Position numbers and translations under genes: made by a program
DNA from: an archaeon
GTDB lineage: Archaea; Asgardarchaeota; Heimdallarchaeia; Heimdallarchaeales; Kariarchaeaceae
Direction of reading: 5' to 3'
Assembly: GCA_024280435.1 (NCBI GenBank)
Contig: JAJRQD010000151.1
Span: forward strand, 1 to 12,082
DNA: 12,082 bases
The notes under the pieces: generated by a model
What the model saw: the letters and a program-made list of their open reading frames with translations, nothing else
What the model was told of the DNA's origin: nothing
Database searches by the model: none
Shown here: piece after piece, positions 1,861-12,082 of the stretch
Position numbering within the stretch: position 1 is the first letter of the stretch
Layout: each line of letters begins with the position of its first letter

Positions 1861-1894
1861 ATATAGAAAATATGTATATAGAAAATATGTATAG
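1861..1894. repeat. 15-bp tandem direct repeat (x2.3) in the promoter-proximal intergenic region upstream of the GTPase-TatD operon
   Basis: 'atatagaaaatatgt' at 1861-1875 and 1876-1890, then 'atag'. It lies about 105-140 bp upstream of the - strand GTPase ATG at 1756. Confidence 0.7.
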
Positions 1895-3459: not shown

Positions 3460-4140
3460 ATGCGAAAAGAATACATCGGTGCAATCATTATTTCAATTGT
3501 AATTATTGCATTCGTGGTATATCAGAGCTCAGATGAAGACGATACAATTAATGAGACATTTACACTACTGAATGGTCAAACTGCAACCCTATCTGATTAT
3601 GAAGGTAAGGGTTTATTGATAGATGCTATGGCATCTTGGTGTGAGCCTTGTAAAATAGAGATGGTGCATTTATATGATATATATCAAGAACTTGGTGATC
3701 AGATAGAGATACTATCAATAAGCGTTAGCCCTTCTACTGATGATGCCCAGACAATCAATGATTTCAAATCAGAAGTTGAACAGGATAATAATCTGATATT
3801 TACATGGGATTTCGCAATTGATAACAATCTGTATATTCAGGAAAAATACTCAATATCAACAATTCCTACGCTGATCTATCTTGATAGCAATGGCACAGAG
3901 GTAAAATCATGGGTGGGTGTTGTGGAAGCATCAGAGATAATCAATACAATCAATTCAAATTATACATCTGGTGAATCAGTTGATAATAATAATATTCTAA
4001 TAGATAGTTTAATCAAAAATCCTGCATTTCAACTATTTATCGGTGCTTTTGTCATTTTTATTATCTATTCAAAATTAGTACCGAAAAAACGATCAGAGAT
4101 AGAACAATCAGAGATAGAACAATCAGAGATGAATGAATAA
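3460..4140 (+). CDS. Membrane-anchored thioredoxin-fold thiol-disulfide oxidoreductase (TlpA/ResA-like), with N- and C-terminal TM segments
   Basis: 226 aa. The N-terminal TM is 'IGAIIISIVIIAFVVY'. The catalytic motif 'WCEPC' sits in a thioredoxin-like context ('LIDAMASWCEPCKIEM'). A C-terminal hydrophobic segment 'FQLFIGAFVIFIIYSKLV' is followed by 'PKKR' and a (SEIEQ)x2.5 tail. Confidence 0.7.
   Translation: MRKEYIGAIIISIVIIAFVVYQSSDEDDTINETFTLLNGQTATLSDYEGKGLLIDAMASWCEPCKIEMVHLYDIYQELGDQIEILSISVSPSTDDAQTINDFKSEVEQDNNLIFTWDFAIDNNLYIQEKYSISTIPTLIYLDSNGTEVKSWVGVVEASEIINTINSNYTSGESVDNNNILIDSLIKNPAFQLFIGAFVIFIIYSKLVPKKRSEIEQSEIEQSEMNE
4093..4131 (+). repeat. 15-bp in-frame tandem repeat (x2.6) encoding SEIEQ at the C-terminus of the thioredoxin-like protein
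   Basis: 'tcagagatagaacaa' at 4093-4107 and 4108-4122, then 'tcagagatg'. Confidence 0.85.
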
Positions 4141-4279: not shown

Positions 4280-5053
4280 ATGGCATTGAATGAATTTATT
4301 TCAATTGGATTTGCCCTTCTTTTTATCATACTTATCCTCGGATTCAGGAAAGTCAATGAGTATGAAAGGGCGATAAATTTTAGACTAGGACGATTCACAT
4401 CCATAAAAGGGCCTAGAGTTTTCTGGATAATTCCTTTTATAGACAAAATTGTAGTTGTAGATCTGCGTGTTCAGGTAATCGATATTCCTAAACAAGAAGC
4501 TATCACCAAAGATAACGTACCGGCATTCATCAATGCAGTAGTATTCTACTCAATTGTTGATCCTGCCAAAGCAATTATTAAAGTACAGAACTATAGGTTT
4601 GCGATCATGCAACTGGCCCAAACCACACTAAGATCTGCAGTGGGTGAAGTAGAGTTAGATGAGCTATTATCAAACAGGGAAAAAGTAAACACTCACATAT
4701 TGGAAGTACTTGATGAGGCAACCGATGCATGGGGTATCGACTGCAAAAGGGTAGAGATCAAGGATCTTGAATTACCAGAGAATATGAAACGTGCTATGGC
4801 TAAGCAGGCTGAAAGTGAACGTGAGCGAAGATCAAGAATAATTCTTGCAGAGGGTGAGATGCAGGCATCATCTAAGTTGGCTGAGGCTTCGAAGATCATG
4901 GCTGAATCAGGTGGAATTTATTTGAGATTGCTTCAGACAATCCAGGAGATCTCTCAAGAGAATACATCAACTGTGATTTTACCATTCCCCGCAGATTTAA
5001 CCGGCTTATCTGGTAATATGATTGAGTCTATAAAGAGCAGTATGAAAAAATAG
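4280..5053 (+). CDS. SPFH/band-7 family protein (stomatin/prohibitin-like)
   Basis: 257 aa. It has an N-terminal TM ('ISIGFALLFIILILGF') and then the characteristic 'EYERAINFRLGRF...GPRVFWIIPFIDKIVVVDLRVQVIDIP...ITKDNVPAFINAVVFY' SPFH core. The C-terminal coiled-coil-like segment is E/R-rich ('AKQAESERERRSRIILAEGE'). Confidence 0.85.
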   Translation: MALNEFISIGFALLFIILILGFRKVNEYERAINFRLGRFTSIKGPRVFWIIPFIDKIVVVDLRVQVIDIPKQEAITKDNVPAFINAVVFYSIVDPAKAIIKVQNYRFAIMQLAQTTLRSAVGEVELDELLSNREKVNTHILEVLDEATDAWGIDCKRVEIKDLELPENMKRAMAKQAESERERRSRIILAEGEMQASSKLAEASKIMAESGGIYLRLLQTIQEISQENTSTVILPFPADLTGLSGNMIESIKSSMKK

Positions 5054-5172
5054 AATTGATTAGTAACAATCGTCAATTTCATCAAATGTATTAATCAATA
5101 TCAGTGCAAAAAAATTGAGATAATATTACATAAGTAAAAAATATAATCAAAGTTTTGTATAGTTCGGAATGA

Positions 5173-5182
5173 ATTTTTATAC
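5173..5182 (+). promoter_or_regulatory. Candidate TATA box for the zinc-ribbon/TM2 gene
   Basis: 'atttttatac' lies 23-32 nt upstream of the ATG at 5205. Confidence 0.3.
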
Positions 5183-5204
5183 TTAAAATTTCAATAATGA
5201 TTTA

Positions 5205-5756
5205 ATGACAAATGTCTATTGTTCAGAATGTGGGACTTCAAATGATGAGAATGCAGGTTTCTGTGGAAATTGTGGTACTAAAATTGAAGCACCAAAGACT
5301 CAGATAAATTCTACTGTACCTGCTAAAGCACCATCTAAGCAGGGTTATCAGCAACCACAGGGTTATCAGCAACCACAGGGTTATCAGCAACCACAGCAGG
5401 GTTATCAGCAACCACAGCAGGGTTATCAACAACCACAGCAGGGTTATCAACAACCACAGCAGGGTTATGTGCAACCTGGTTATGTACAACCAGGATTTCA
5501 ACAACCTATGGGTAGACCTGGAATACCGGGATATCAGATACCAAGGAAAGATCCCTCAGTTGGCTATATTGGGGCACTATTTATCCCTGGATTTGCACAT
5601 TTTTATACTGATAATGTTGGCACTGGAATTGTCTTATTATTGATAACTATTTTCACATATGCGATTGTAATTGGATTGATTATTCATTTTGTTCAATTTT
5701 TAATGGCCGGAGATCGAGTAAAATATTACAATAGATTGAATGGCTATCCACAATAA
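5205..5756 (+). CDS. Zinc-ribbon / Q-Y-P-rich low-complexity linker / C-terminal TM2-domain (two-TM) protein
   Basis: 183 aa. The N-terminus 'CSECG...CGNCG' is a C4 zinc ribbon. The middle is (QGYQQPQ)n with about 9 repeats. The C-terminus 'GALFIPGFAHFYTDNVGTGIVLLLITIF...IVIGLIIHFVQFLMAGDRV' matches the TM2-domain pattern (G-x-H-x-FY...G-I-L-LL, a second TM helix, then a conserved D). Confidence 0.65.
   Translation: MTNVYCSECGTSNDENAGFCGNCGTKIEAPKTQINSTVPAKAPSKQGYQQPQGYQQPQGYQQPQQGYQQPQQGYQQPQQGYQQPQQGYVQPGYVQPGFQQPMGRPGIPGYQIPRKDPSVGYIGALFIPGFAHFYTDNVGTGIVLLLITIFTYAIVIGLIIHFVQFLMAGDRVKYYNRLNGYPQ
5341..5505 (+). repeat. In-frame 18/21-bp coding tandem repeat encoding (Q)QGYQQP
   Basis: 'cagggttatcagcaacca' occurs 3 times, then 'cagcagggttatca(g/a)caacca' 4 times, followed by degenerate 'ggttatgt(g/a)caacc' units. 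The - strand ORF at 5238-5504 ('LLITLLWLL...') is the mirror artifact of this repeat. Confidence 0.9.
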
Positions 5757-5825
5757 TTAAATATTAATAGAAAATTATTAAATTGCCTACTGAATGCATA
5801 ATTATACTAAAGTCAAATAGAATTA

Positions 5826-6476
5826 TTAGACATTATTAATAAAATACCTCATCTGTCTGATACTTGTTGGAAATAGTCTGCCTACATTTCTCTGATATTC
5901 CTTATATGTATCAAAAAACTCAGCTAATTTCTTTTCCTCATAGTATGTACCAATGAGAAAATAACCACCTGCTCCAATTATCCATGATAATGAATTTTCA
6001 GAGACCTCTACAAATAATGTGGCTATAAATATAATTATTGCTCCGAGATATACTGGATGTCTTGAGAAAGAATATATGCCAGAGGTATTCAGTGGTTCCT
6101 CTTCTTTGGTTATGCCAATAAATCCAAGTAAATCCCATTTCAATAATCCCAATATTGCAATAATAGTGCCTATTACTAGCCCTGTTAAGAAAAATATCAG
6201 ATATATTCCCTCTAATCTCAGTCCTTTTACTATCAGATCTCCAATCCCCGGTACATTGTAAGAGGTTACCATGAATGTAATTATTGCAATAATATTGTAT
6301 AAAACTCTGTATGTTTTCGCTCCAATCGGGATTCTATTCTTTATTGAAATAGATGTGGTGAGTGAATGAATGATACCAAAAAAGCCCCACCATAAAATAT
6401 ACATGATCAATAATGCCCAGTTCATATATATTAGATCAAAGATAAAAACATAAAGTTTGTTATGATTGAAATTCAA
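5826..6476 (-). CDS. Isoprenylcysteine carboxyl methyltransferase (ICMT)/phospholipid methyltransferase-family integral membrane methyltransferase
   Basis: The C-terminal signature is 'SRHPVYLGAIIIF...GTYYEEKKLAEFFDTYKEYQRNVGRLFP', matching the ICMT-family RHPxY...EE..L..FG..Y..Y...V.R..P motif, within a 5-6 TM helix protein. The ORF-track start at 6476 is TTG. The more likely true start is the in-frame ATG at 6425 ('MNWALLIMYILWW...', about 199 aa). Confidence 0.75.
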   Translation of the reverse strand: MNFNHNKLYVFIFDLIYMNWALLIMYILWWGFFGIIHSLTTSISIKNRIPIGAKTYRVLYNIIAIITFMVTSYNVPGIGDLIVKGLRLEGIYLIFFLTGLVIGTIIAILGLLKWDLLGFIGITKEEEPLNTSGIYSFSRHPVYLGAIIIFIATLFVEVSENSLSWIIGAGGYFLIGTYYEEKKLAEFFDTYKEYQRNVGRLFPTSIRQMRYFINNV

Positions 6477-6686
6477 ATATTATAAGAGGTGGTATTTTGA
6501 TTATTATCTGTACGTATTTTAAGTTGTGAAATTAATTTCATGCTCCGGTTATTGAATGTGTTTTAATATTCTGGGGCTACTATTCCCATTAATATATTTA
6601 TCTCCACAGCTATTGCACCTGTATAATCCTCTGTTTACCTTTATTATAGGTCCACAGTATGTATGTGAGGCGTAGCTCACATCTTA

Positions 6687-7793
6687 TTACTCTTTAAATG
6701 CTTCAATAATTGATTTGAGATAATACAAAGAGCCATAGGCAATCATCAGGAAATTAATAGTCAAATATATCAGTGAAGATAGTATGAGAATACCTGATAG
6801 CATTACTGGTAGTATAATCATTGCAATCAGATAATATTTGATCATATTGAGATCATAATACTCTTTATTTGCCTTTGTGACATTCCTGTACACATAGTTA
6901 GATCTGTGAAATGCATAAATTGTCAGTCCATATATGGTAAATACAATGATATATGGTAAAGCAATGTTTGGAAGTAATGATGCTTTGTTTAAGAAAAGAC
7001 CAATAAGATAGTATATAACCAATAGAACAGTCAATATTTTGAAATTTCTATCTGAAAGTTTGAGATCATAGATGGATAGTTTTGTCTTATTATCAATACT
7101 TTTTCGATTTATAATACTGATCAGTATCAATATGATCAACCAATTTGCCATGATTGCAATTACTGCACTCAGTATCTGTGTACCAAGAATGACTCCAAGA
7201 ACTGCAGAGGGCCACAGTACCACAAATAAGAACAAAATCACTGTTTTTAGACTATCTTTCTCGAAGTACTTTATATGATTTGGCAGGATTGTGTTAATAT
7301 CTTTTGACATTGTATATGCATAAATTTCTACGATCATTATTGGTAAAATAAAAGAGAATACTGGATGAAAGAAGAATACAAGTGTCAAAGTCTCAAAAAT
7401 AGCAATTCCACCTATTTTTCCCCAGAATACATCTGAAGAGTATCCATTGAATACAACTTTTGTTATCCATGCCTCGTATAAACCGAAAAGTACACCTAAT
7501 AGGTACAAATGCTTGAAATCTGTTTTTTTGTATCTCAGAGCAATATTAATGAAAAATAAAGATTGTAGTATGAAGTTTGGAAAAGAAAATAATATATCGC
7601 CGATATTCAAAAACCAGAGAGGCGATGCATATGTCATCACCTGTCCAAAATACATGGATATAGTTCCAAATAACAGTAAAATCAATATTATCAGTGAATT
7701 ATTCTTATTTTTATCAGTCATATTTCTTTCAAGAATTAATAGAATATTATTCTTATTCATTTTGAAAAAAAAAATTGGAAAGCAATTTAACAA
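6687..7793 (-). CDS. Polytopic integral membrane protein (about 10 TM helices), family unknown; immediately downstream of the ABC exporter genes
   Basis: 368-aa ORF that is extremely hydrophobic, with about 10 predicted TM segments and no motif I recognise. The ORF-track start at 7793 is TTG. In-frame ATGs at 7760 and 7721 are alternative starts. There is a 65-bp gap to the upstream ABC gene on the same strand, so it may be co-transcribed. The strongly AT-skewed composition means shadow ORFs appear on the + strand. Confidence 0.55.
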   Translation of the reverse strand: MLNCFPIFFFKMNKNNILLILERNMTDKNKNNSLIILILLLFGTISMYFGQVMTYASPLWFLNIGDILFSFPNFILQSLFFINIALRYKKTDFKHLYLLGVLFGLYEAWITKVVFNGYSSDVFWGKIGGIAIFETLTLVFFFHPVFSFILPIMIVEIYAYTMSKDINTILPNHIKYFEKDSLKTVILFLFVVLWPSAVLGVILGTQILSAVIAIMANWLIILILISIINRKSIDNKTKLSIYDLKLSDRNFKILTVLLVIYYLIGLFLNKASLLPNIALPYIIVFTIYGLTIYAFHRSNYVYRNVTKANKEYYDLNMIKYYLIAMIILPVMLSGILILSSLIYLTINFLMIAYGSLYYLKSIIEAFKE

Positions 7794-7858
7794 TTAAATG
7801 CGAATACAATAATTCTGTACTTCAAATTTTTACCTCTATGATTTTGTATTACAAATTT

Positions 7859-9880
7859 TTAATTTTTTATATCTGAGATGCCTTGATGTGCATAATAAGT
7901 ATTGTACAGTTCAAAATACTTACCTTTTAATCTCATCAATTCATCATGAGTGCCCTGTTCTACAATTGAGCCATCATCCATCACAATTATCTGATCTACA
8001 TCTCTAATAGTGGATAATCTGTGTGCAATAATCACAGTAGTTCTGCCCTCAAATAATTTATTCTGGGCTTCCTGTACAAGGCTCTCCGTGAATGCATCCA
8101 ACCTGCTTGTGGCCTCATCTAGAATAAGTATCTTGGGATCACGTATCATAGTTCTTGCAATAGTTATCATCTGCCTCTGACCTGCCGATAATGATTTACC
8201 CGATTCTATCAATTTAGTCTCATATCCATCTGGTAGTGCCTCTATAAACTGATCTGCACCAAGCATCTCACATATTTTGTATACCTGCTCATCAGATACA
8301 TCTTGATTACCATATTTGATATTATCAACCACAGAGCCAACAAAAAGATAAGGTTCCTGCGATACAAGGCTAATTGTATCATACAGTGATTCAAGTGTTA
8401 TTTCTCTCAAATCCTGCCCATCAATCATGATGGAGCCATCCTTTGGATCATAGAAACGTAATAATAGTTTTGTGATGGTGGTTTTACCTGCTCCTGTATG
8501 TCCAACTATGGCTGTCTTTTTTCCTGCAGGAATAGTGAATGATACATTTTTCAATACAATCGTTTCATTTCTATCTTCAGAATTACCCATCATCCTAGCT
8601 TTCATATTAGCTTTCATCTTAGCTTGCATCTCTGCTTGCATCTTAGCTTTCATCTCTGCTTTCATCTTAGCGTCCATATCAGGCTTCATATTAGCTTTCA
8701 TCTTAGCTTGCATCTCTGCTTGCATCTTAGCATTCATCTTACCCCTCATATCAGGCTTCACTGCACCATTCATTCTCTTTTTACCACTATAAGCAAATGA
8801 TATATTATCCACCTGTATCTCTCCTTCTGAGAATCCAAGAGGCCTTGCATCAGGACTATTTTTCACAGAGGGCCGAGATTCAAGTACATCTGTAACTCTA
8901 TCAAGAGCTGCCAATGATGCCTGGAAATTAGTTATATTATTTGATAATGCCATTATTGGAGATAAGAACCTTCTAACCATAATTGTACCCAGATAAATTG
9001 CACCCAATGTGATTATCCCCGCCTCATTAAGATAACCACCTACAAGTAATACACCCATTATCATGAGCATACTCACAAGCGTAATTGATGGAAAAATCAT
9101 AGTGAACAGAAAGCCCAATTGTTTGAAATAGCCAAAAGTTTCATCATTCAGCTTTCTGATCTCCTCACTGGTTCTATCTTCTTGATTGAATGATTTGGCA
9201 ATTGCCACCCCATTAAGATTCTCTGCTAACTTACCCGATACCTTGCCCATAGATGATCTTACCTCCAACATCTTCTGTTTACCTCTAGATGCAATTATCT
9301 TTGTAATTCCAAATGCAGTTGGCAATGCTAACAATGAGATCAAGCCAAACCATATGGAGATAGAAAATAATACTATCAATGTAGTCAGAGCAACCAATAG
9401 ATTCGTCAGCGTAGTGGTAAACACTGCAAGCCCATTGGTAATCTCCTGTGTATCACCAATCACTCTTGAAGTAACATCTCCTGATTGATTTGTGGCATGA
9501 TAATTCATATCTGCTTTTACTAGTCCCTCAAAAGTGGCTGTTCTTAATGAATGCACCAGCCTATTGGATACAATACTCATAAACCACGTATTTGCTGATT
9601 GAGCCATCCATGATAATATAGATAGTGCAAAATATATGATTACAAGTGTTGTTATCGCATCAAATTTATCTCCAACTAGTAACTGATCTATTGCTTTCTC
9701 AACTATCAATGGCTGTGCTGTAACTGCTGCTGTGTAGAACAGAGTTAACAATGCAATCAGAATAAGATAGCCTGTAAATGGCTTCAAGTATTGCCATAGT
9801 ATTTTTAACAGTATTTTGAAAGACCGGGTACGTTTATTATCCGAAAGCATACTGGAATGTCTGCTACCAGGTCTACTCAT
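7859..9880 (-). CDS. ABC exporter half-transporter (TMD-NBD, type IV/ABCB-like) with a canonical ATPase site, carrying a Met/Lys-rich repeat insertion in the NBD
   Basis: 673 aa with an N-terminal 6-TM domain. Walker A 'GHTGAGKTT', Q-loop 'SQEP', Walker B+E 'ILILDEATSRLD' and H-loop 'IIAHRLSTI' are canonical. The signature is divergent ('LSAGQRQMITIARTM'). About 65 extra residues lie between NBD strands beta1 and beta2, including (KAKM)-type tetrapeptide repeats. The ATG start overlaps the stop of the upstream ABC gene (ATGA at 9877-9880), and a GGAGGA Shine-Dalgarno sits 8 nt upstream. Confidence 0.85.
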   Translation of the reverse strand: MSRPGSRHSSMLSDNKRTRSFKILLKILWQYLKPFTGYLILIALLTLFYTAAVTAQPLIVEKAIDQLLVGDKFDAITTLVIIYFALSILSWMAQSANTWFMSIVSNRLVHSLRTATFEGLVKADMNYHATNQSGDVTSRVIGDTQEITNGLAVFTTTLTNLLVALTTLIVLFSISIWFGLISLLALPTAFGITKIIASRGKQKMLEVRSSMGKVSGKLAENLNGVAIAKSFNQEDRTSEEIRKLNDETFGYFKQLGFLFTMIFPSITLVSMLMIMGVLLVGGYLNEAGIITLGAIYLGTIMVRRFLSPIMALSNNITNFQASLAALDRVTDVLESRPSVKNSPDARPLGFSEGEIQVDNISFAYSGKKRMNGAVKPDMRGKMNAKMQAEMQAKMKANMKPDMDAKMKAEMKAKMQAEMQAKMKANMKARMMGNSEDRNETIVLKNVSFTIPAGKKTAIVGHTGAGKTTITKLLLRFYDPKDGSIMIDGQDLREITLESLYDTISLVSQEPYLFVGSVVDNIKYGNQDVSDEQVYKICEMLGADQFIEALPDGYETKLIESGKSLSAGQRQMITIARTMIRDPKILILDEATSRLDAFTESLVQEAQNKLFEGRTTVIIAHRLSTIRDVDQIIVMDDGSIVEQGTHDELMRLKGKYFELYNTYYAHQGISDIKN
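8575..8770 (-). repeat. In-frame 12-bp coding minisatellite (14 units, + strand 'cat-ytt-agc-ttt' = KAKM on the coding strand), with an 84-bp higher-order duplication
   Basis: Read on the + strand, the units are 'catcctagcttt catattagcttt catcttagcttg catctctgcttg catcttagcttt catctctgcttt catcttagcgtc catatcaggctt catattagcttt catcttagcttg catctctgcttg catcttagcatt catcttacccct catatcaggctt'. Units 2-4 equal units 9-11 exactly. The encoded peptide is 'MRGKMNAKMQAEMQAKMKANMKPDMDAKMKAEMKAKMQAEMQAKMKANMKARMM'. Confidence 0.9.
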
Positions 9881-11664
9881 TGTTCGATTCCTCCTGCAAT
9901 GATCTGCTCAGATTCAGGTAATAACTCGAATATCTTTCTATAAGATTGGCACCTTGCAAGTAGTTCTTTATGTGTGCCATGATCAAGTATCTCTCCTTTG
10001 TGCAATAATATAACCATATCCGCCTTTACCAGTGTATTCAATCTCTGAGTAACTGTGATTGTCAATCTATCCCTGCTCAGATTATCTAATGCAAGCCTTA
10101 ACAATGCTTCAGTCTTGGAATCAAGAGCAGATGCGCTATCATCAAGTAATAATATCTTTGGATCTGCAAGAATTGCTCTGGCAATTGCCAATCTCTGTTT
10201 CTGGCCACCAGATATATCCACTCCTCGCTCTCCTATCACAGTATGTATACCATTGGGTAATTTCTCAATGAACTCAAATGCCTGTGCAGCTTTTGCAGCC
10301 TCAATTATCTCCTCATCTGTTGCCTCTACTTTTGCGAAGCCAATATTATCCCTGATTTTTCCAGAGAATAGAAATATTTCCTGCTCGACACGTGATACAT
10401 TCTTTCTCACCTCTCTCGCAGATATATCCTTATAGTTGATACCTGATATTTTTATTGCACCCTCAGTGCTCAGATACAGCTGTAATAATAGCTTCAAAAA
10501 TGTGGACTTACCCGATCCTGGACCACCAATCAGGGCGATTTTACTATTTGCAGGTATGGTCAGATTGATATTCTTCAATGCAGGTCTCTTATCACTGCCA
10601 TAATTGAATGTTACATTATCAAATACAATATCGCCTTCCCAATTCACTTCTGGCTCATTCTCAATTATTTTATCCGGCACAGGATCTATCCAGTTCATCT
10701 TCTCCCATATTCTGTTGGCATTAGTCAGTGCCGCATTAATCATAAGAAACATATTGGGAAGCATCAGGCTGGATAACTGAATTGTCAATAACAGCCCAAT
10801 TACCTGTAGCATAGCTCCTAGACTGATTGTACCATTTGTTACATCAATTAGTGTGAGTGCGAATAATACAGCTGTAAGTACCAGCATGATTAGATTTGGC
10901 ATATAGAAAGCCGACATTTGTCCTTCAGTTTTTGCCAATTCTGCATATTCAGAACTAGTTTTTCTGAATTTTTGCACCTCTCTTCTGGTGGATTTTAGTG
11001 ATCTGACCACTTCGATTCCCTGGAATATCTCCTGCGATTCCTCAGTCAATGATCCTACTGTATTTGCAAGCTTTTCTCTGATAGGAATAATCTTCTTGGA
11101 TTGCCATATGGCTATAATGTAGTATAAAATAAATCCTGATAGTGCAATTACAGTTTTATACAGATCTGTTGCTCTGTAGATGAAGAATAATGCAAATGCA
11201 AGTTGGAATATATTCTGGAAAATACCTCTGGCAGCAGGCATAATTCCTGTACGTAGTTGGCTGATCTCAGTCATTCCTGTTGCCAACAATTTAGATGAGT
11301 TATTCTCATCATGAAATGTCAGGCTGTGTTTCTGTATTCTATCAAAATATTCTTGCCTAATATCTCGTTCGTATGAGAATGCCAGCGTCATATAGGTGTA
11401 GAATGCATAGAATGTGACAATATAGTACAGTACTCCAACGGCAAGTATTTTCAGTGTTTCTGATATGAATGCCTGCCCTAATCCCTCTTCTCTCAGAATA
11501 TCTATGGAACTTCCCACAAAAATAGCAGGAAGTAGCATTCCAAGTGATGAGATCAGCATTGCAATCACACTGATGAATAATTTTAGTCGGCTTCTTTTTA
11601 TGAATGAAAAAAATAAAGCGTTGCCTGAGCTGTAAAGTTTTTTATTGTTATCCAATTGAATCAC
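9877..11664 (-). CDS. ABC exporter half-transporter (TMD-NBD) with a degenerate, non-catalytic-type NBD; heterodimer partner of the downstream subunit
   Basis: 595 aa with 6 TM helices. Walker A 'GGPGSGKST' and signature 'ISGGQKQRLAIARA' are canonical. The Walker B catalytic Glu is replaced by Asp ('ILLLDDSASALD', codon at 10138-10140). The H-loop His is replaced by Gln ('TITVTQRLNT', codon at 10045-10047). The start codon is GTG at 11664-11662. Confidence 0.85.
   Translation of the reverse strand: MIQLDNNKKLYSSGNALFFSFIKRSRLKLFISVIAMLISSLGMLLPAIFVGSSIDILREEGLGQAFISETLKILAVGVLYYIVTFYAFYTYMTLAFSYERDIRQEYFDRIQKHSLTFHDENNSSKLLATGMTEISQLRTGIMPAARGIFQNIFQLAFALFFIYRATDLYKTVIALSGFILYYIIAIWQSKKIIPIREKLANTVGSLTEESQEIFQGIEVVRSLKSTRREVQKFRKTSSEYAELAKTEGQMSAFYMPNLIMLVLTAVLFALTLIDVTNGTISLGAMLQVIGLLLTIQLSSLMLPNMFLMINAALTNANRIWEKMNWIDPVPDKIIENEPEVNWEGDIVFDNVTFNYGSDKRPALKNINLTIPANSKIALIGGPGSGKSTFLKLLLQLYLSTEGAIKISGINYKDISAREVRKNVSRVEQEIFLFSGKIRDNIGFAKVEATDEEIIEAAKAAQAFEFIEKLPNGIHTVIGERGVDISGGQKQRLAIARAILADPKILLLDDSASALDSKTEALLRLALDNLSRDRLTITVTQRLNTLVKADMVILLHKGEILDHGTHKELLARCQSYRKIFELLPESEQIIAGGIEQ
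9889..9894 (-). promoter_or_regulatory. Shine-Dalgarno (GGAGGA) for the second ABC gene, consistent with translational coupling inside the operon
   Basis: The + strand 'tcctcc' at 9889-9894 reads GGAGGA on the - strand, 8 nt upstream of the ATG at 9880. The upstream gene's TGA overlaps that ATG. Confidence 0.5.
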
Positions 11665-11693
11665 TTCTCAATATTTGAAGTAAATGATTTTTG

Positions 11694-11710
11694 TTTTTTA
11701 AATATATTTA
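11694..11710 (-). promoter_or_regulatory. Candidate archaeal TATA/BRE region for the ABC operon
   Basis: The + strand 'ttttttaaatatattta' reads 'TAAATATATTTAAAAAA' on the - strand, about 30-46 nt upstream of the GTG start at 11664. The placement fits a short-leader or leaderless archaeal promoter. It is sequence-only and unverified. Confidence 0.3.
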
Positions 11711-12065
11711 ATTAGGATATTACTGTAATGCTGTTAAGATTGATATCTAATACACGAATTTCACTATTCTCTCTTATCAAAATTTAGTTGTACTTGTCTA
11801 TTATACTTGTCTATTATACTTGCCTATTATATTATAATTATATTTAATTAGGATACTACTGTAATGCTGTTAAGATTGATATCTAATACACGAATTCCAC
11901 TATTCTCTCTTATCAAAATTTAGTTGTACTTGTCTATTATACTTGTCTATTATATTCTAATTATATTTAATTAGGATACTACTGTAATGCTGTTAAGATT
12001 GATATCTAATACACGAATTCCACTATTCTCTCTTATCAAAATTTAGTTGGACTTGCCTATTATAT
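11705..12065. repeat. Noncoding tandem array: 3 copies of a 123-136-bp unit with a nested 13-bp sub-repeat present in 3, 2 and about 1 copies
   Basis: Units begin at 11705, 11841 and 11964 ('tatttaattaggata(t/c)tactgtaatgctgttaagattgatatctaatacacgaatt(t/c)cactattctctcttatcaaaatttagttgtacttgtctattat...'). The unit length difference (136 versus 123) equals one extra copy of 'acttgtctattat'. The third copy degenerates into unique flank ('...ttggacttgcctattatatgctaaaaaaatgcatca'). Each unit carries a TATA-like 'ttatatttaatt'. Confidence 0.9.
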
Positions 12066-12082
12066 GCTAAAAAAATGCATCA

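Follow-up and report, generated by a model that had tools for sequence, protein, structure and literature searches.

The repeat array that lies directly upstream of an ABC exporter operon in this archaeal contig is probably a non-coding, species-specific minisatellite of young age, in which the promoter region of that operon, a segment of ~110 nt, has been triplicated in tandem. The window analyzed here is an entire contig of 12,082 nt, and the array, which consists of three head-to-tail units, stops 12 nt short of the contig end. The array is real and not an artefact, and two of the interpretations that had been offered in the original prediction, iterated promoter modules and a satellite, survive the analysis. 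A regulatory effect of the array is plausible, if hypothetical.

The three units are 136, 123, and 110 nt long, and each of them is composed of a 90-nt body, a variable number of copies of a 13-mer, and a 7-nt linker. The units differ mainly by their 13-mer count, with every step in unit length being exactly one 13-mer. Unit A, which is proximal to the ABC operon (11702–11837, 136 nt), contains three 13-mers at 11792–11830 (two copies of ACTTGTCTATTAT, followed by ACTTGCCTATTAT) and the linker attataa. Unit B (11838–11960, 123 nt) contains two 13-mers at 11928–11953 and the linker attctaa, and the distal unit C (11961–12070, 110 nt) contains a lone 13-mer, ACTTGCCTATTAT, at 12051–12063 and the linker atgctaa. 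On the strand that is sense for the ABC genes, the 13-mer reads TATAATAGRCAAG and consists of 54% A, and the array as a whole has a GC content of 24% with 45% A on that strand. Partial repeats adjoin the 13-mer tract on its flanks. One substitution separates the bodies of units B and C, and two separate those of A and B; the longest exact stretches that the units share are 92 bp for B/C and 57 bp for A/B.

The three tandem copies that had been noticed upstream of the operon were recovered by TRF as well as by a gap-free repeat finder, and their boundaries could be refined to 11702–12070. TRF detected an array with a period of 123 at 11804–12064 (97% matches, score 494) and, nested within the long units, 13-nt arrays at 11791–11831 (3.2 copies) and 11927–11954 (2.2 copies), and the gap-free repeat finder returned three 128-nt copies whose starts lie 136 and 123 nt from one another and two of which match the reference copy at 95% and 86% identity, together with the 13-mer region in six copies. 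The window contains exactly three occurrences of a 31-mer taken from the core of the unit, and none of 200 dinucleotide shuffles contained any match to it. The 13-mer ACTTGYCTATTAT has six copies in the window where 0.12 are expected, and all of them lie within the array, distributed as 3 + 2 + 1; the exact occurrence count thus agrees with the nested copy numbers that had been proposed, although the 3-2-1 order is by itself not significant, as three distinct values are monotonic in two of their six possible orders. These are high-identity head-to-tail units of at least 10 nt that exceed chance expectation, as expected of a minisatellite. Two further claims on the content of the units held in part. 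A GATATC palindrome is indeed found once per unit, but the window count of 7 against an expected 6.7 makes it noteworthy only through the repetition of the unit, and the TATA-like string ttatatttaatt, said to be present in each unit, is exact in B and C but carries one mismatch in A. Several further short tandem repeats were seen by TRF in coding as well as non-coding parts of the window.

The operon next to the array encodes a heterodimeric ABC exporter on the minus strand. Subunit 1 (9877..11655, minus strand; 592 aa, TTG start), which is 100% identical to protein P0001, has the Pfam domains ABC_membrane and ABC_tran, i.e., fused transmembrane and ATPase domains, and its NCBIfam matches are generic MsbA-like only and fall below curated cut-offs. 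Subunit 2 (7859..9880, minus strand; 673 aa) is likewise an ABC exporter with fused domains, and since the two genes overlap by 4 nt, they form an operon. The position directly upstream of this operon that had been assigned to the array proved correct, with the array edge being 46 nt upstream of the TTG start codon. The intergenic region that holds the array is at least 427 nt long, and the other intergenic regions of the window range from 9 to 224 nt; the same region without the two extra units would measure ~168 nt, which is within that range. The other genes of the window, which has a GC content of ~33%, code for a Ras-family small GTPase, a TPR protein, a thioredoxin-like protein, an SPFH protein, a zinc-ribbon protein, and an ICMT-like methyltransferase. 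The closest named relatives of the ABC protein come from Kariarchaeaceae, Hodarchaeales, and Heimdallarchaeota MAGs at 50–56% identity, and the host is therefore an uncultured Asgard archaeon of the Heimdall group (Heimdall/Hodarchaeales-like). Window genes such as the Ras-like GTPase, the SPFH protein, and the ABC exporters have chromosomal Asgard orthologues, and there is thus no sign of an extrachromosomal element.

In archaeal promoters, the TATA box is centred ~26 nt upstream of the transcription start, and leaders are short. As the array comes within 46 nt of the start codon, the only room for the core promoter is in the proximal unit. The element that most readily suggests itself as the TATA box of the operon is TAATTAAATATATTT (minus strand, read from 11714 to 11700), which extends across the proximal array edge and has its centre ~52 nt upstream of the start codon. 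By archaeal promoter geometry, the proximal transcription start is predicted near 11681, which would result in a leader of ~26 nt that carries a Shine-Dalgarno-like sequence, GAAGTGAT (11660..11667, minus strand). This sequence matches GAGGTGAT, the core of archaeal Shine-Dalgarno sequences, at 7 of 8 positions and lies 4 nt upstream of the TTG, which supports the gene model of 592 aa. The TATA-like element recurs at the proximal edges of units B and C, i.e., at the A/B junction (11836..11850, minus strand) and at the B/C junction (11959..11973, minus strand), and the duplicated segment therefore appears to include the core promoter. The start sites predicted from these two duplicates, near 11816 and 11939, would fall within the 13-mer tracts of unit A and unit B, respectively. 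These upstream copies, which are followed by other sequence than the proximal one, are possibly inactive. Every gene of this AT-rich window has TATA-like strings frequently in its upstream DNA, and a literature search for Asgard promoter or start-site data yielded nothing usable. Among the candidates of the original prediction, putative iterated promoter modules fit the array geometry best. The TATA element is also near-palindromic, and transcription on the plus strand, toward sequence past the contig end, is equally possible. In the last nucleotides of the contig, an ATG at 12075 on the plus strand could open a divergent gene, or the TGA and T7 tract there could close a co-directional gene upstream of the operon.

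A second strain is represented by contig JAJRTV010000355.1 of GCA_024278115.1 (L004), an independently deposited MAG contig that is colinear with positions 11976–6722 of the window at 99.77% identity over 5255 nt, with 12 mismatches and no indels. Its exporter subunit, P0121, matches P0001 at 591 of 592 residues and is the sole other member of the 90% cluster of P0001. The contig carries unit A with three 13-mers (140–275 of L004), unit B with two (17–139), and both junctions, and the tandem structure is therefore no one-off assembly artefact. Only the first 16 nt of unit C are reached before the contig ends, so that the number of long units is not comparable between the strains. Two of the 12 mismatches are located in the array, one at 11946, where an A and a G variant of the 13-mer in unit B are interchanged, and one at 11834 in the linker of unit A at the A/B junction; in L004, every unit starts with a G-variant 13-mer, followed by zero, one, or two A-variant copies. 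The two strains, which are 0.2% apart (n = 2), have the same numbers of 13-mers in units A and B, and this argues against rapid ongoing slippage. The earlier suggestion that slippage is ongoing was thus not borne out.

We compared the orthologous ABC operons of relatives at 73%, 66%, ~63–64%, and 56% protein identity, and in none of these relatives was a unit-like sequence or a long-period array present. For three of the orthologous operons, the k-mers that their upstream DNA shares with the array did not exceed shuffled expectation. The upstream neighbour of the operon differs in every relative, being a 777-aa protein, GrpB, SAM synthetase, or others, and synteny therefore gives no prediction of the missing flank. 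The upstream intergenic spacers of the relatives measure ~45 to 276 nt, and two window proteins, the 368-aa and the ICMT-like one, showed no homology to the neighbours in the relative at 73%. A GTDB scan with the ABC protein returned one distant Asgard locus and unrelated bacteria. The bodies of the units are only one or two substitutions apart, and there is no trace of them in relatives at 56–73% amino acid identity, which together point to a recent origin within the lineage; from these sequence comparisons, we take the array to have been added recently, in this lineage only, at a junction that is poorly conserved. In three relatives, the intergenic DNA beside the ABC operon contains unrelated 13–19-bp tandem repeats, and the genomes of this set seem to be generally prone to tandem duplication. 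An 11-mer, ATCAAAATTTA, that the array has in common with the 19-bp repeat of one locus (L033) is at chance level and in opposite orientation.

The probable triplication can be given a simple, conditional history. On the ABC-sense strand, each unit is preceded by the linker ttagaa or ttataa, and the unique distal flank is ttagca; as the linkers resemble this flank, the boundary of the duplication is identifiable. Each unit begins with tataata and ends with aaatata. The ancestral single copy may have been ttagca + TATAATAGGCAAG + the 90-nt body + TAATTAAATATA, in an ordinary upstream region of ~168 nt. Short TATA-rich microhomologies would then have allowed a tandem duplication into C, B, and A, by unequal recombination or by replication slippage, in the simplest history with A + B arising first and B + C later, and slipped-strand mispairing could have added one extra 13-mer in B and two in A. 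The outcome would be one proximal operon promoter and two upstream promoter copies, whose transcription starts in the 13-mer tracts would extend the leader by 136 and 259 nt, and the net effect may be neutral or a modest shift in the expression of the exporter.

It is unlikely that the array instead is a regulator-binding array, in which the 13-mers or another motif of the unit serve as transcription factor sites (operators or activator sites) that tune, through their number and spacing, the ABC operon or a divergent gene past the contig end, either in a selected number or as a phase-variable switch. Several observations would suit such a function, namely that the 13-mers of the window are confined to the array (6 versus 0.12 expected), that their counts are kept between the two strains, and that they sit where transcription from the upstream promoter copies is predicted to start, which would be a typical position for an archaeal repressor. 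Promoter repeats of similar size are also known to raise the expression of drug-related genes elsewhere, as exemplified by the 126-bp element of Penicillium digitatum cyp51 (PMC4336317). However, the 13-mer is not palindromic, its 13-bp period is off helical phasing, and the proximal promoter, which alone is certain to be relevant, has no 13-mer downstream of it. Furthermore, the orthologous upstream regions share no motif with the array beyond chance, no regulator gene is visible in the window, and the equal copy number of the two strains speaks against phase variation at a fast rate.

The location of the array at a contig end bears on the rather unlikely explanation that the unit belongs to a repeat family, or that the array is far longer than the visible part, and that a satellite, a MITE-like element, or the edge of a mobile element abuts the ABC operon. 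Since the array lies only 12 nt from the contig end, three units are a lower bound, and the exact 92-bp stretch of B and C means that further identical units have possibly been collapsed or cut off in assembly. The array is likely one reason why assemblies break at this locus. Both contigs that reach the array end in it or 12 nt after it, the 92-bp stretch would confuse short-read assemblers, and the gene order upstream of the ABC operon, different in every relative, would fit a rearrangement-prone site. Yet the other ends of both contigs fall within unique genes, so that a contig end is weak evidence. No array copy was found outside the locus in the 12-kb window, on L004, or in 30 related or fetched loci. 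Exact 23–26-mers from the array had no match in GTDB species representatives, in JGI metagenomes (two patterns), or in IMG/VR (two patterns), and blastn in its 'distant' mode with the array gave no match in phage and plasmid collections. As to whether the units are dispersed or unique, a question that came with the initial description, no other copy was thus found in the window, the sister contig, the related loci, and these five collections. MITE families are characterized by dispersed copies, terminal inverted repeats, and target-site duplications, and the repeat finder detected neither terminal inverted repeats nor target-site duplications around a unit. Whatever the true extent of the array, its copy number is not to be trusted without long reads, and its main practical value is cautionary.

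A more far-reaching idea, which we regard as quite improbable, is an expandable promoter cassette, in which recombination between units and slippage of the 13-mers would alter the number of TATA- or operator-like sites before a multidrug-type exporter. If such a cassette existed, it would generate heritable, reversible expression variants within populations of an Asgard archaeon and would be an archaeal counterpart of contingency loci and of fungal drug resistance by promoter repeats.

Very improbable is also a set of three small non-coding RNA genes on the plus strand with TATA promoters of their own, or a leader or non-coding RNA that is long and contains repeats, as proposed for the intergenic tandem repeats of Borg extrachromosomal elements. 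The TATA-like element precedes each unit in plus orientation too, and the A-rich sense strand (45%; 54% in the 13-mer) with its flanking partial repeats resembles what is described for the Borg intergenic repeats (PMC9879509). Nevertheless, the proposal of a small-RNA cluster is not supported by the folding analysis, in which the three units gave z values of −0.76 to +1.79 on both strands and thus folded no better than shuffled sequences. With Rfam, there was no match in the whole window at gathering thresholds, and a permissive scan gave chance-level matches only, none of them at E < 0.6 and none within the array at E < 5 (the single match there had E = 5.5). Inspection of the array revealed no C/D-box or H/ACA features, no oligo-T terminator is present at the unit ends on the plus strand, the sequence is conserved in no relative examined, and ARAGORN detected no tRNA or tmRNA genes. 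RNA covariation is uninformative here, as the copies are nearly identical.

Finally, it is extremely improbable that strain alleles of differing 13-mer number were concatenated at the contig end by the assembly, as might be suspected from the location of the array at a MAG contig end and from units that differ mainly in 13-mer count, since the unit-to-unit junction sequences must be present in reads, there are two junction variants (attataa and attctaa), and the independent assembly with its 12 substitutions and no indel reproduces A, B, and both junctions.

Other identities are at odds with the structure of the array. CRISPR arrays have repeats of ~24–48 bp that are separated by unique spacers of similar length, whereas the units described here are 110–136 nt long, directly adjacent, and without unique spacers, in line with the initial judgement that this is no CRISPR array; the sole CRISPR-DR match in Rfam lies outside the array and scores 22 bits against a cut-off of 50. 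Coding function is contradicted by stops in each of the six frames, where open runs reach 35 codons at most, and two of the unit lengths, 136 and 110 nt, are not divisible by 3. The only ORFs are TTG-start frames of 22 aa, one per unit, which we judged to be spurious as small proteins. Archaeal origins combine an adjacent orc1/cdc6 gene with inverted ORB repeats on both sides of an AT-rich unwinding element. The long repeats of the array are all direct, neither inverted ORB-like pairs nor G-rich boxes are present, and inverted matches in the array only reflect the near-palindromic AATTAAATATAATT string, so that the idea of an origin-like repeat set finds no support; no orc1/cdc6 is found among the window genes, with the far side of the array being off the contig. 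Iterons, i.e., direct repeats of 17–22 bp beside a rep gene on a mobile replicon, were considered as well, but there is no rep gene in the window, and the array resembles no sequence of the phage and plasmid collections or of IMG/VR. A 10-nt complementarity of each unit with the ABC coding region (11554–11563) was judged to be a chance match rather than antisense pairing.

In conclusion, the triplicated promoter region would, if we are right, be a small and clean case of promoter evolution by local duplication in the archaeal lineage that is closest to eukaryotes, and three TATA copies with a nested repeat before an efflux operon would constitute a convenient natural test of promoter dosage and spacing, given an expression system or a transcriptome for these organisms. 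Nothing points to a new class of element.

Among known systems, bacterial contingency loci are similar in that a short tandem tract lies in a promoter region, where copy-number change would alter promoter geometry. Contingency tracts usually have units of 1–8 nt and vary between close isolates, whereas the tract described here has 13-nt units and identical counts in two strains. The Borg intergenic repeats share with the array an archaeal host, an intergenic position, an A-rich sense strand, flanking partial repeats, and a lineage-specific, recent character, but the Borg repeats are perfect and have units of ~20 nt in the examples given, and the units of the array are 110–136 nt long and substituted (95% and 86% identity) (PMC9879509). 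The nearest functional analogue is found in promoter tandem duplications. In the cyp51 promoter of P. digitatum, a 126-bp element is tandemly duplicated, with a demonstrated expression and resistance phenotype (PMC4336317). The likeness extends to the unit size of ~123–126 bp, to the location directly upstream of the gene, and to the drug- or efflux-related nature of the genes, but the known cases are duplications of eukaryotic enhancers with a phenotype, and the array is archaeal, appears to include the core TATA element, and is known from sequence alone; the resemblance lies in the possible way of working and not in ancestry. The closest category overall are the prokaryotic non-coding minisatellites or VNTRs, which are also head-to-tail, non-coding, species-specific, and short, and which probably result from local replication or recombination errors (PMC6749651). 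The array adds to these a nested level of repeats and an overlap with the putative core promoter, and its non-coding unit of more than 100 nt is unusual among them, as a survey of prokaryote satellites that included 142 archaeal genomes found units of more than 30 nt in only 17.5% of the archaeal satellites, most of which were coding (PMC6749651). A non-coding unit of this size is therefore uncommon, but it is not new in kind.

All repeats taken together, tandem duplications are notably abundant in this 12-kb contig, and they are found both between and within genes. Two short arrays have a 15-nt unit, one with 2.2 copies at 100% identity (window 1861-1893) and one with 2.9 copies at 96% identity (window 4088-4130). 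One of the two occupies an intergenic region, and the 3' end of the thioredoxin-like gene contains the other. A coding repeat with a 21-nt unit and 6.9 copies (window 5338-5491) was found in the plus-strand gene of a zinc-ribbon protein (5205-5756). In the orthologue from the relative at 73% protein identity, a related 21-nt unit is repeated only 2.4 times (L005 8204-8254), and the copy number thus differs between the species.

Direct tandem repeats also adjoin the orthologous ABC operons in loci of relatives, where they are intergenic and have units of 13 bp (L002 8819-8885), 19 bp (L033 2810-2849), or 15 bp (L031 6736-6814). These repeats comprise 2-3 copies, and their sequences are unrelated. 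These Asgard genomes may generally tend to form such repeats; alternatively, the repeats may be regulator sites.

Both in the window species (window 4280-11655) and in the 73% relative (L005/L008), the SPFH and zinc-ribbon genes share a neighbourhood with the ABC operon, and the order and orientation of the three differ between the two species. For two other window genes, which encode the 368-aa and the ICMT-like protein, no counterpart was found at these loci of the 73% relative. The upstream junction of the ABC operon is a rearrangement breakpoint. As to what lies further upstream, the plus strand ends with ...atgctaaaaaaATGcatca (window 12064-12082), and a divergent gene could begin here. 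Read on the minus strand, these positions give TGA followed by T7, and a co-directional upstream gene could alternatively have its stop codon and oligo-T terminator here; the contig stops at these bases, which fit either reading.

At the other side of the window, a minus-strand gene encodes a small GTPase of the Ras/Roc family (1133-1756; Pfam Ras, E = 9e-38), and it is adjoined by the gene of a TPR protein (1981-2445). The GTPase gene belongs to the 'eukaryotic signature' genes typical of Asgard archaea, and it supports the taxonomic placement.

Within the ABC operon itself, the minus-strand gene of exporter subunit 2 (7859-9880) contains a coding tandem repeat with a 12-nt unit and 12.7 copies (window 8590-8749), and the sister strain shares this repeat (L004 3236-3387). 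The repeat gives rise to a K/M/A/E/Q-rich insert of about 50 residues (…KMNAKMQAEMQAKMKANMKPDMDAKMKAEMKAKMQAEMQAKMKANMKARM…) that is placed immediately N-terminal to the ATPase domain, and an insert of such type is uncommon for an ABCB-type exporter.
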